Source of the DNA: Alphaproteobacteria bacterium
GTDB taxonomy: Bacteria; Pseudomonadota; Alphaproteobacteria; GCA-2731375
Assembly: GCA_965225945.1 (NCBI GenBank)
Contig: CBDDBZ010000032.1
Location: 192,001-256,000, forward strand
Direction of reading: 5' to 3'
DNA: 64,000 bases
Below, piece by piece: positions 4,917 through 8,813 of this stretch (position 1 is the first letter of the stretch; each line of letters opens with the position of its first letter). The notes under the pieces were generated by a model. It did no database searches. It was given only the letters and a program-made list of their open reading frames with translations, and was not told the origin of the DNA. The position numbers and the translations under genes are program-made.

Positions 4917-5112
4917 GCTTTCCTCCCGGCGACGGTCCGGAATTATAGGCGGCTGGCCGGCGGCGCCGCAATTTCCGTTCAACTGATTGAGAAGATTTGG
5001 TAATCTTTTCGTGCCCAGGTAAGTTGCGAGCTTTATCCTCGGCGCTGGCTCGGGCCGGAAAAGGCCGCGCCCGGGGCTCGACGCGAGATCGATCGTCTGG
5101 GAAACGGACGGT

Positions 5113-5871
5113 ATGAAAATCGGCGACAACAGACCACTCGGCAGTCCCAGCGCGGCCCGCACGGGCGCGCGGGACGCCGCGCGCGCTTACGCCGGCACGG
5201 AAGCCTCCGCGCCGCGCGCGACGGAAGACAGCACCACCATTCTCGGCATTCCCGAGTCGGAACTGACGCCCAAGGTGCGCGAGGCGATCATGAAATTGAT
5301 GCACGAAGTGGAGACACTTCGTCGCGAGCTCGATCGCACCCATGAGCGCCTGAATCACATGGAGAAGCTGGCCGATCTGGACCCCCTGGCACCGATCGCC
5401 AATCGGCGCGCCTTCGTGCGCGAACTCACCCGCGCGATTTCCTTCGCCGAACGCAATCAGAGCCCGCCGAGCTTGGTTTATTTCGACGTCAACGGCTTCA
5501 AGGCGATCAACGACAATTACGGCCACGCGGCGGGCGACAAGGCGTTATTGCACGTGGCGAGCGTCCTGCTGGAGCGGGTGCGCGAATCGGACGTCGTCGG
5601 TCGCTTGGGCGGCGACGAGTTCGGTGTCATCCTGGCCCAGACGAGTGAGACGCGCGCGCGCGAAAAAGCCCAGACGAGTGAGACGCGCGCGCGCGAAAAA
5701 GCGATGCAACTGGCCGAGGCGATCGAAAACGAACCGGTGGCGTGGGAAGGCACCGATCTGCTGATAAAGGTCGCCTACGGGATCACCACCTTTCAGGGCG
5801 GAGAAGATGCCCTGGCGGCGGCCGACCGGGAGATGTACGAGCGCAAGGCCAGCATGAAATCCGAGGGCTGA
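5113..5871 (+). CDS. GGDEF diguanylate cyclase with N-terminal coiled coil
   Basis: [31 protein letters not shown]-site and RLGGDEF. Confidence 0.92.
5635..5700 (+). repeat. perfect 33-bp in-frame tandem duplication ([11 protein letters not shown] x2)
   Basis: gcccagacgagtgagacgcgcgcgcgcgaaaaa at 5635-5667 and 5668-5700. Confidence 0.95.
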
Positions 5872-5964
5872 ATTCTCGGCCCGGCCCGGCGTGAGCCCGA
5901 GTCATGGCGACGGCCCCGGCGGGGGACGTCCGGACCGCTCCGCTCATTGGTGCACCCTTTGATC

Positions 5965-6240
5965 GGTGAGCGTTGCGAATCGGCGTACCGTGCACCATCC
6001 GAGCGTCCGCCGCGACGGCCTGCTCCGCTTGCCGCTCGCCGGCCAGGGGGAGACCCGCCGCGCGGCGGTGCACCACCCGAGCGTCCGCCGCGACGGCCTG
6101 CTCCGCTTGCCGCTCGCCGGCCAGGGGGAGACCCGCCGCGCGGCGGCCGGGAGCGTTGAACGGACCACAGGGTGTTGCGCCAAGGCCTCTCGGCCAGAGC
6201 GCCGGTCAATGAGCGATCCGCGCAGGCTCCCAGCTCGGGA
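5965..6240 (+). ncRNA. putative IS110 bridge RNA with two target-binding loops and one donor-binding loop (ends approximate)
   Basis: GCTCCGCT (6022-29, 6100-07) equals left target 5937-44; AGGGGGAGAC (6045-54, 6123-32) is the revcomp of right junction 7494-7503; CACAGGGTGT (6166-75) equals donor 7486-95; CAATGAGCG (6207-15) is the revcomp of left junction 5941-49. Confidence 0.82.
5990..6145 (+). repeat. 78-bp tandem duplication (1 mismatch) in the IS110 left end
   Basis: Units 5990-6067 and 6068-6145 differ only at caccaTcc/caccaCcc. Confidence 0.95.
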
Positions 6241-6270
6241 CAACTTATCGCAATCGAGGAGGTAGGGAAC

Positions 6271-7485
6271 ATGGGATATTGTGTGGGAATAGATTGGGGT
6301 GGCCTCGCACATGCCGTTTGCGTCGTCGACGACGCAAACGGCATGTGCGTCGAAAATTTCGAGGTGGCCCACGGCGCCGCCGGGATAGCCGAGCTGCTCG
6401 CCCGCCTGGCCCGCATCGCGCCGCCGGAGGAAATGCCGATCGCCATCGAGCGACCTTCCGGCCTGCTGGTCGAGAGCTTGATCGAGGCCGGCCATCCGGT
6501 GATCCCGATCCACCCCAACGTCGTCAAGGCCTGCCGCCCGCGCTACCGCGCCGCCGGCGGCAAAAGCGATCCGGGCGATGCCTACATGATCGCCGATATC
6601 CTGCGAACCGATGGCCATCGCTTCCGCGCCCTCACACCGTGCTCCGACGAGATCGAGGCCTTGAGCGCTCTGGTCCGCACCCGCGACGACCTGGTCGCCA
6701 AGCGCGTCGCCATCGCCAATCAGCTGCGCGGCCTGCTCGACGGCTTCTGGCCCGGCGCCGGCGCCGTCTTCGCCGATATCGACAGCAAGATCGCGCTCGC
6801 CTTCCTCGAACGCTATCCCACCCCCGACAGCGCCCGGAGCCTCGGCGAGAAACGCCTGGCCGCTTTCCTCGCCCGAAACCACTACAGCGGCGGCCGGAGC
6901 CCCCGCCAGCTGCTCGATCGCCTCGGGGCCGCCGCCCGCGGACGCGCCGGCCCCGCCGAAGTCGAGATGAAAGGCGAACTGGTGCGTGCCCTCGTCGCCG
7001 TCCTCCGCCCGCTGGTCGAGCGCCTCGGTGAACTCAGCCGACGCCTCGAGCGAGAGGTCGCCGCGCTTCCCGATGGACGGATCATCATGTCCTTTCCCCG
7101 CGCCGGCCGTGTCTGCGCGGCTCAGATCCTGGCCGAACTCGGTGACGTCAGGGAACGATACCTCTCCGCCGATCACCTCGCCGCCGAGGCCGGCGCCTGC
7201 CCCGTCACTCACGCGTCCGGAAAATCCAGGGGCGTCAAATTCCGATGGGCCTGCAATCATCGCCTGAGGCGCGCGATCACGACCTTCGCCGATAACTCCA
7301 GGCACGAATCCCAGTGGGCACAAGACATCTATCTCGCCGCCAAGAAGCGCGGATGTCGCCACGCCCATGCCATCAGAATCCTCGCCCGCGCGTGGATCAG
7401 GGTCATCTGGAGAGCATGGACCGACGGAAAACCCTACGACCCGCAAAAACATCGAGCCGCAATGCGCGCCACCGAGATAGGTTGA
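6271..7485 (+). CDS. IS110 family transposase/recombinase
   Basis: RuvC-like DEDD: GIDWG, AIERP, KSDPGDA; C-terminal AGACPVTHASGK with the conserved Ser; RBS GAGGAGG. Confidence 0.95.
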   Translation: MGYCVGIDWGGLAHAVCVVDDANGMCVENFEVAHGAAGIAELLARLARIAPPEEMPIAIERPSGLLVESLIEAGHPVIPIHPNVVKACRPRYRAAGGKSDPGDAYMIADILRTDGHRFRALTPCSDEIEALSALVRTRDDLVAKRVAIANQLRGLLDGFWPGAGAVFADIDSKIALAFLERYPTPDSARSLGEKRLAAFLARNHYSGGRSPRQLLDRLGAAARGRAGPAEVEMKGELVRALVAVLRPLVERLGELSRRLEREVAALPDGRIIMSFPRAGRVCAAQILAELGDVRERYLSADHLAAEAGACPVTHASGKSRGVKFRWACNHRLRRAITTFADNSRHESQWAQDIYLAAKKRGCRHAHAIRILARAWIRVIWRAWTDGKPYDPQKHRAAMRATEIG

Positions 7486-7497
7486 CACAGGGTGTCT
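7482..7497 (+). promoter_or_regulatory. -35 box (TTGACA) at the IS110 right end; forms a junction promoter on circularisation
   Basis: Circle junction would read TTGACA-cagggtgtctcattggtg(18 nt)-CACCCT; established IS110 behaviour, the -10 assignment is inference. Confidence 0.6.
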
Positions 7498-7590
7498 CCC
7501 CCTCCGGGCCGCCCGGAAAAGCTCCCCTCAATGGGTGGCCCGGAGGGGTCCCGGAGGGGGAGCGGAGCGGCCGAGACTTATGTCCATCGC
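7498..7590. repeat. remainder of a REP-like palindromic element targeted by IS110 (left arm begins about 5900-5944)
   Basis: Rejoined ccgctccgctccccctccggg is the inverse complement of cccggagggggagcggagcgg (7550-7570). Confidence 0.7.
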
Positions 7591-8813
7591 CACAGTACAC
7601 GACTCGTTCATGCTGGCTTTGGCCTGGGCACCTGGACTGGTGGTTTTCCGGGGACGAGGAAACGAATCAGCTCAATGGCTTGACGCCTGTCGATAGGATT
7701 GACGAGCTGTCGCCTTATCCACTCGAAACCGTATCGGAAGATGGATTTTGCCATCCTTTTGTGGGTTTTGAGGCGGATCGGCTCGGCCTCGTGGAGCCAA
7801 TCGCCGACTTTGTGCGCCCAGCAGAAGGTGATGGAAAGGACGGCGGTGAGCTTGGAGATGCGCTCCGGGTCGGTCATGTGGGTGTCTTCGAGGTTGAAGC
7901 CACGGGTTTTCAAGGCGGCGAAGAGGGTCTCGATTTGCCAGCGCTGGGCGTAGATGGCCAAGGCCTCCTCGGGCGCGTCGTTGGTCACGACGATCAACAG
8001 TTCGCCGGTCTTGAGATGGAGCGCGGCGACGAAGACGGGCCTGGCCTTGGGTTTTCTGGCCTCCGAGAGGCGCCTGGCGTTGGAGAGGATGCGGCTTTCC
8101 CCGGGTTTGAGGTCGCGAAACAGCTCCCTCGCCTTGACCATGCGACCACGCGTGTTGGCGATCTTGATGTTGGATCGGATGCGGATGTGAAAGGGGATGG
8201 CCTTTTCCTGCAACCATGCCAGCCAGGCGTCGCCGATGAATTCCCGGTCGGCCAGGAGGCTGGCGATCTTGTCGACCCCGAAGAGCCGGAGGACGTGTTC
8301 GAGGATCGCGATCCGCTCCTTGGTATTGGAATTGCCCGCCTTGTCGAGCACCCGCCAGCACACGGGAATGGCGATGGCGCGGTTGACGATGCCGATCATC
8401 AAGATGTTGACGTCGCGGCGACCCAGCCGCCAGTTGGTCCGGTCCATGGTCAGCCGCCACGGCCCCGCCTGGAGCCCCATCATCGCGACCAGGAACTCGG
8501 CGAGGCGATCGTAATCGAAATCGACTTGCTCGAAAAACCGTTGCAGGCGCCGATAGTTGGAGCTGGATCGCGCGCGCCCCGGAAAGTGGCAGGCCAAGTG
8601 AGAGAGGTTCACCGTCCGGGCGACGAACACGCCGAAGACCAAGACGCAAAGGCTCTCCAGACGGCTCTTGCGAAAGGCGAAGCCGCATCGTAGCGTCTCA
8701 CGCAGGGCGTTGATCGGGTTGTCTCGCATGATTTCCCTCTTGACTCGTCGTGGAGTGAATCGGGAATCCTACAACCTTTTCAACGTCCTACGTAAATGCC
8801 GTCGTGTACCATG
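7591..8813 (-). mobile_element. IS4-family element copy 1 (1223 bp)
   Basis: Ends CACAGTACACGAC / GTCGTGTACCATG; 9-bp target duplication GTCCATCGC (7582-90, 8814-22). Confidence 0.93.
7608..8729 (-). CDS. IS4 family DDE transposase
   Basis: MDRTNW, LLADREF, YAQRWQIETLFAALK (YREK motif). Confidence 0.95.
   Translation of the reverse strand: MRDNPINALRETLRCGFAFRKSRLESLCVLVFGVFVARTVNLSHLACHFPGRARSSSNYRRLQRFFEQVDFDYDRLAEFLVAMMGLQAGPWRLTMDRTNWRLGRRDVNILMIGIVNRAIAIPVCWRVLDKAGNSNTKERIAILEHVLRLFGVDKIASLLADREFIGDAWLAWLQEKAIPFHIRIRSNIKIANTRGRMVKARELFRDLKPGESRILSNARRLSEARKPKARPVFVAALHLKTGELLIVVTNDAPEEALAIYAQRWQIETLFAALKTRGFNLEDTHMTDPERISKLTAVLSITFCWAHKVGDWLHEAEPIRLKTHKRMAKSIFRYGFEWIRRQLVNPIDRRQAIELIRFLVPGKPPVQVPRPKPA

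Follow-up and report, generated by a model that had tools for sequence, protein, structure and literature searches.

An IS110-family insertion sequence at positions 5945–7497 (+ strand) of the 64,000-nucleotide stretch of alphaproteobacterial DNA analyzed here (the window) has, judged from its sequence, a canonical bridge RNA locus at its left end, and in the present assembly the target-binding loop of this locus occurs twice, as a tandem repeat of a 78-bp unit. On balance, the duplication is likely to be a real, recent event that is private to this strain and under no selection. The evidence comprises the anatomy of the left end and its guide matches, covariation among related elements, the absence of the repeat elsewhere, and the load of small tandem duplications in the genome as a whole; the existence of the duplication in the strain, the production of the RNA and the fold described below are inferences.

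The element is 1553 bp long including one copy of the core dinucleotide (1475 bp if only one unit is counted). It starts at 5945 and ends at 7495, where it is followed by CT at 7496–7497, and CT is also found at 5943–5944. The empty site is seen in a relative, in which a contig of public sequencing run X1 joins 5942 to 7496 and skips exactly 1553 bases; this precise empty site, the 2-bp core on both sides and the lack of terminal inverted repeats place the element in the IS110 group. Its recombinase gene (6271–7485, + strand) is an open frame of 404 aa with matches to the N-terminal, RuvC-like domain DEDD_Tnp_IS110 (PF01548; E = 9.3e-33, model positions 1–155 of 155) and the C-terminal domain Transposase_20 (PF02371; E = 5.5e-15). 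The only match to a solved structure is a weak one to the ISCro4 transposase (9t56; E = 3.8e-5), and the SG motif of the recombinase is aligned with the SG of the ISCro4 chain. The source genome (G000) holds one full and one decayed copy of the element. The decayed copy (L002; contig C5, 17742–18168, minus strand) is 98% identical and has one repeat unit; one base is changed in its right guide, 3 nt are inserted after its target loop, its left flank agrees with its left guide at 5/8 positions, ACG replaces the ATG start codon, and the copy is interrupted at the equivalent of 6445.

Near the beginning of the recombinase gene lies a perfect 44-bp palindrome (6306–6349; 22-nt arms, no loop), which the C5 copy shares; searched over the initial 200 nt of the gene, 11 relatives yielded inverted repeats with arms of 5–8 nt at best. 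The protein departs from its close relatives exactly at the palindrome, which suggests an origin by templated (quasi-palindrome) mutation. Perfect inverted repeats with arms of at least 14 nt number 99 across the genome, compared with 2 in a block-shuffled control, and 33 of the 99 share one loop-less 18-nt arm and probably form a single repeat family. Downstream of the IS110 element, at about 7590–8800 (gene 7608–8729, minus strand), lies another insertion sequence, about 1.2 kb long and with a DDE_Tnp_1 (PF01609) domain, of which the genome has roughly 50 near-identical copies (71 BLAST rows); in public runs X15, X16, and X19 its contigs reach about 100-fold the depth of the flanks.

The IS110-group element lies downstream of a GGDEF gene (5113–5871), in one arm of a 19-bp inverted repeat that was split by the insertion. 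The second arm (7550–7568, minus strand) retains an intact, unoccupied 14-bp target at 7555–7568; the 14-mer occurs nowhere in the 6.27-Mb genome but at this minus-strand site, about 60 bp from the element. In lying within GC-rich intergenic sequence able to form a stem-loop, the target resembles that of ISPpu10 as described in the accessible part of bioRxiv 10.64898/2026.03.19.712850; it differs in that the 14-bp sequence is unique apart from its mirror copy in the other arm, whereas the ISPpu10 target there is a multi-copy intergenic repeat. The left flank supplies a 6-nt left target followed by the CT core (5937–5944, + strand), and the left guides of both repeat units (6022–6029 and 6100–6107) are equal to it at 8/8 positions each. 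The right flank supplies the other core copy followed by a 6-nt right target (7496–7503, + strand; right target 7498–7503), to which the right guides of both units (6045–6052 and 6123–6130) are the exact reverse complement, again 8/8 each. Left and right guides are thus identical between the two loops. The donor-binding loop (6147–6232, + strand) carries a left donor guide (6167–6175) that equals the right end of the element (7487–7495, 9/9) and a right donor guide (6207–6213) that is the reverse complement of the core plus left end (5943–5949, 7/7).

Two of these relationships were compared in related elements. Compared by eye rather than counted by a program, the right donor guide covaries with the left end of the element among the relatives. 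In a comparison by eye of left guides with left flanks, the only flanks considered, the match is 8/8 in L014, L019, and L025, seven contiguous positions in L020 and 8/9 in L017, and it is weaker in L013, L016, L018, and L022.

Structure prediction with RNAalifold was applied to 13 left ends, of which 11 come from relatives and the other two are the C5 copy and, for the window, unit 2 (L022, which is identical to L013 in this region, and L023, L024, L026, and L027, which have no upstream sequence, were left out). Of 34 predicted pairs, 25 show compensatory changes. The covarying elements are a basal stem that encloses both loops, the outer stem of the target loop and its inner hairpin, and stems of the donor loop are also predicted. 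In the basal stem (alignment columns 21–27 with 191–197), both sides are changed in 2 to 5 of the 13 sequences at each of the seven pairs. A scan of 5700–7800 against Rfam 15 (E up to 10) returned six chance-level matches to miRNA and sRNA families and no bridge RNA, and Rfam 15 may hold no such family, so membership among the bridge RNAs rests on the alignment made here. A promoter and terminator scan of 5800–7700, treated as linear DNA, returned no sites; TTGACA is present at the right end (7482–7487), but inspection by eye in the presumed order of a circle junction found no convincing −10 element 16–18 nt away. Among the public runs listed for the stretch, none is recorded as an RNA data set. 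The earlier proposal, made without database searches, that this IS110 left end encodes a bridge RNA is borne out by the Pfam domains, the guide matches and the covariation.

The best characterized bridge RNA, that of IS621, is a non-coding RNA encoded by the left end, in which a 5′ stem-loop is followed first by a target loop and then by a donor loop, according to the portion of the report available (Durrant et al., 2024, PMC11208160). So far as IS621 is described in such portions, the present element shares with it a recombinase with DEDD and Tnp domains, the CT core and the order of RNA elements, as well as a left guide equal to left target plus core, a right guide complementary to core plus right target, and donor guides that match the element ends. 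It differs in its recombinase, which is distantly related and gives no direct sequence match to IS621 chains; in the covarying basal stem, which in this subfamily encloses both loops; and in the target loop, which occurs twice in this assembly.

The tandem repeat spans 5990–6146 (Tandem Repeats Finder: period 78, 2.0 copies, 98% matches, no indels, score 307) and lies 125 bp upstream of the recombinase frame. Unit 1 (5990–6067, + strand) and unit 2 (6068–6145, + strand) are identical at 77 of 78 positions, an adjacent repeat far beyond what chance could produce; the sole mismatch, T5998 vs. C6076, lies outside both guides. The ancestral base is C, which is present in the C5 copy, in all four public runs and in L012 and L016, so that unit 1 carries the derived T. 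In alignment, covariation and predicted fold, unit 2 contains the target-binding loop of the canonical RNA (outer stem 6085–6092/6139–6146, inner hairpin 6109–6112/6118–6121), and unit 1, by sequence and predicted fold, a spare one (outer stem 6007–6014/6061–6068). The 5′ stem-loop of the RNA occupies 5949–5996 (+ strand), and its 7-nt 3′ strand (5990–5996) lies within unit 1 and recurs at 6068–6074. The 5′ strand of the basal stem (6076–6082, + strand), which is duplicated at 5998–6004, pairs with a 3′ strand (6233–6239, + strand) supported by covariation and fold. The 78-bp unit thus takes in the target-binding loop as a whole and one strand of each of two stems: of the basal stem it includes the 5′ strand, of the 5′ stem-loop the 3′ strand, and the partner strands of both are single-copy despite the duplication. 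Within the duplicated basal-stem strand the mismatch affects the first pair, which changes from C-G to U-G and remains a pair.

On these points the sequence-only reading of the locus was accurate. It had reported a 78-bp unit present twice with one mismatch, on which Tandem Repeats Finder and the sequence agree, for this assembly only; both target guides in each unit, which match the insertion site at 8/8 and 8/8 positions; a lone donor-binding loop after the units, with guides that match the element ends; and duplication of the entire target module, of which the outer stem and both guides fall inside the unit. Its further proposal, that the locus is a natural guide with two target loops followed by a donor loop, fared differently, as described below.

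A partition-function fold of 5945–6245 indicates how a two-unit RNA would behave. The basal stem is predicted to form through unit 2 (pair probability 0.99) and hardly through unit 1 (0.01), and the 5′ strand of the 5′ stem-loop is predicted to pair with its partner copy in unit 2 (mean 0.93) and not with that in unit 1 (0.02). The outer stem of the target loop is predicted in both units (0.82 in unit 1, 0.98 in unit 2), and in the resulting model the 5′ stem-loop is enlarged and holds a spare, identical target loop, the rest being a normal bridge RNA. If transcribed, the RNA would consist of a normal bridge RNA (5′ stem-loop, target loop and donor loop closed by the basal stem, with unit 2 as the target loop) and, ahead of it, an additional, redundant target loop whose guides are identical. 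The extra loop would add no new specificity and would at most alter loop stoichiometry or folding efficiency.

The mechanism described for IS621 bears on how such an RNA would behave. One synaptic complex probably draws its target loop and its donor loop from two RNA molecules, loops supplied separately support recombination in trans, and recombination between two targets does not take place, as stated in the accessible parts of two studies (Hiraizumi et al., 2024, PMC11208158; bioRxiv 10.1101/2025.05.14.653916). Since the loops of IS621 work separately, a spare identical target loop should be tolerated and would provide no new target. Likewise, in the split bridge RNAs of IS622 and ISCro4, as far as the same preprint was available (bioRxiv 10.1101/2025.05.14.653916), the target loop is self-contained and works apart from the donor loop, which would make an extra copy in cis mechanistically tolerable. 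Those split RNAs are engineered, with one target loop per reaction, and transpososomes with two target-binding loops (TBL-TBL) do not form; in the locus described here, by contrast, the extra loop stems from a natural or artefactual duplication and its guides are identical.

These properties bear on the proposal that the two-loop RNA is a selected, functional guide, whether an intermediate in retargeting, the seed of a guide array or a guide tuned in stoichiometry. It has in its favor that both units are predicted to be complete, foldable target loops, that the mismatch preserves pairing in the duplicated basal-stem strand, and that loops of IS621 and IS622 act as independent modules in trans, at least in the published portions cited above. 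Against it, the guides of the two loops are identical and hence confer no second specificity; the two-unit form was found in none of the four public runs, nor in the second genomic copy or any of the 15 relatives that could be compared; the element has a single full copy, the sole intact target in the genome, 60 bp away, is unoccupied, and there is no sign of enhanced activity; and a chance overlap is plausible in a genome with 107 comparable duplications. Selection for the two-loop form is for these reasons considered very unlikely. The looser reading, that the duplication is real, that it is transcribed as a target-target-donor RNA and that both target loops load recombinase dimers, is unlikely as well, if somewhat less so.

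The question of whether the strain has the duplication at all was approached through four public sequencing runs (X1, X15, X16, and X19, from among X1–X24 listed for the stretch), whose Logan contigs were compared with the window over 5000–8000. All four show a one-unit left end: a single contig runs from 5940/5944 to 6069, continues after one letter with 6146–6335 and has C at 5998. These contigs represent this very left end and are distinct from the C5 copy. None of the four runs has among its listed joints a backward one of the kind expected from two units, and a dominant two-unit form would probably break the contig at the unit borders in a 31-mer graph; Logan contigs may drop rare variants, so that a two-unit form could exist in the four runs as a minority, and segments for which no contig piece is listed do not speak for absence. 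Run X15 otherwise agrees letter for letter with the window over about 2.9 kb, with 0 differences at 5000–5623, 5673–5973, and 6416–7616 and with the contig for 5673–5973 spanning the same insertion junction, yet it has neither the duplication nor T5998. The read check thus found one unit in four of four runs and no instance of the two-unit form.

These observations give weight to an alternative that is distinctly possible, though not favored: a single unit is present in the strain, and the T-bearing second copy stems from long-read assembly, polishing or a minor subpopulation. Besides the four one-unit runs with C at 5998, this alternative has in its favor that the window differs from X15, otherwise identical, in nothing but the additional unit and one base within it. 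A real duplication with a point change inside it, and with no other nearby difference from X15, is somewhat improbable, and the same pattern would also fit an artefact. The assembly is probably a long-read one, as roughly 50 near-identical 1.2-kb copies of the DDE-type insertion sequence lie inside its contigs. The perfect duplications of the genome are unusually many, show no frame bias, mostly have 0–1 nt of microhomology and truncate frames in at least nine cases, all of which could be a property of the assembly. Clean direct duplications of 78 bp, however, are rarely created by long-read assemblers. The four runs, moreover, may not be the source of this assembly; the contig break points of three independent runs support a neighboring 33-bp duplication; and duplications with 1–3 mismatches elsewhere in the genome resemble an age series of real events.

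The neighboring duplication is a perfect repeat of 33 bp (5635–5702, 2.1 copies) that lies in frame (11 aa) in the GGDEF gene, 350 bp upstream of the 78-bp repeat. In X15, X16, and X19 the contigs break off at 5664 and resume at 5673, as is expected of a 31-mer graph that meets a 33-bp duplication, whereas X1 is single-copy here. The support from three runs indicates that such duplications do occur in nature in this lineage, and a real, strain-specific event remains the preferred reading of the 78-bp repeat.

Genome-wide, Tandem Repeats Finder identified 168 non-overlapping arrays with a period of at least 25, many of them with exactly 2.0 copies at 100% identity, and a minority of the duplications of about 2.0 copies carry 1–3 mismatches. 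An exact scan of the 6.27 Mb found 107 perfect two-copy tandem duplications with periods of 20–400 (e.g., C32:171175, C34:243021, and C36:352599), among them the 33-bp one in the GGDEF gene. Their periods are distributed 41/36/30 modulo 3 and thus show no in-frame bias, the junctions of 73 of the 107 have 0–1 nt of microhomology, and at least 9 of the 66 out-of-frame duplications truncate a long open frame, a test weakened by the many stop-free frames of a GC-rich genome. Either the lineage has an unusual mutational signature or the load is a property of the assembly. Given 107 comparable events, the 78-bp repeat needs no explanation specific to IS110, and a very recent duplication by the same generic process that may lie behind more than 100 similar events in the genome would account for it. 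Two array types of another kind were also seen: one and the same 38-nt unit is tandemly repeated, in 2 to 6.4 copies, at six loci (C33:304616, C34:398108, C35:410472, C38:141849, C38:555991, and C39:92121), and a period-67 array of 7.5 copies at C10:7731–8228 looks like a CRISPR array of repeats and spacers.

Tandem non-coding repeat units that adjoin IS110 transposases have been explained by a model of half-match recombination (bioRxiv 10.64898/2026.08.14.744561), and by analogy the element's own recombinase might have made the 78-bp repeat. In the part of that preprint at hand, the repeats resemble the present one in their length of at least 50 bp, their identity of at least 95% and their position in the non-coding part of an IS110 locus; they are expansions with half-matches to the donor end at unit boundaries, which the 78-bp repeat lacks, and the main text has no mention of a target-binding loop within a repeat unit. 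At the unit boundaries of the present repeat (5989/5990, 6067/6068, and 6145/6146) there is neither a CT core nor a match to the donor end, and more than 100 duplications in the same genome lie far from any IS110 element. An IS110-mediated origin was rejected on the former ground and is the least probable of the explanations considered. Classic slippage between direct repeats was also rejected, as the repeat junction has 1 nt of microhomology only (and no CT core).

The repeat was also sought in related elements. A protein search found related loci on 4 genome contigs and 12 metagenome contigs, together with 3 Mesorhizobium plasmid copies of one insertion; 4 of the 16 genome and metagenome loci had too little upstream sequence and were dropped, leaving 12 for the repeat check. 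No tandem repeat was found in the left end of any of these 12 loci or of the 3 plasmid copies (0/15). A DNA search with the left end in 101 genomes, the source genome among them, gave outside the latter only short matches with E-values of 4.7e-5 or weaker and no usable homologue, and a search with the recombinase in 401 genomes of the class, again including the source genome, gave no match at E = 1e-40 or better outside it, so that none of the other genomes searched yielded a member of this subfamily. The survey of copies and relatives suggested by the sequence-only reading thus yields a one-unit second genomic copy and no multi-loop relative among 15, and as far as public data allow, both observations that would speak against a natural two-target guide (one unit in the reads, no multi-loop homologue) have been made. 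With identical guides in both loops, one unit in all four runs and in the C5 copy, and 0 of 15 relatives with the repeat, the proposal of a natural target-target-donor guide finds no support; for the same reasons, and in view of the 107 comparable duplications, neither does that of a retargeting intermediate or guide-array seed. The duplication, if real, would be private to this strain or assembly and without selection.

As regards novelty, no bridge RNA with two target loops was found described in the literature as far as it was accessible, although the bridge-RNA tables of PMC11208160 and the repeat catalogue of bioRxiv 10.64898/2026.08.14.744561 may include left ends of this kind, and tandem repeats in the non-coding regions of IS110 elements have already been published in general terms, as the accessible text shows. 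The element adds a new member to the IS110 family and has a canonical bridge RNA, of which the duplicated loop is a trivial, unverified variant.

Were the duplication real, transcribed and loaded at both loops, it would be the first captured duplication in cis of a bridge-RNA module, one from which a second specificity could be shaped and which would set a natural precedent for multiplexed guides. A real and functional copy would mean that a bridge-RNA module can be duplicated while the guide stays intact, and it would represent a first step by which IS110 elements could gain a new target specificity through duplication and divergence, with hints for multiplexed scaffolds. The evidence points against a functional copy, as the duplication is young, unselected, possibly artefactual and without a second specificity. 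The locus is of value chiefly as a new, well-annotated IS110 subfamily whose bridge RNA has a covarying basal stem and whose target lies within an inverted repeat; it also draws attention to the unusual abundance of small tandem duplications across the genome.
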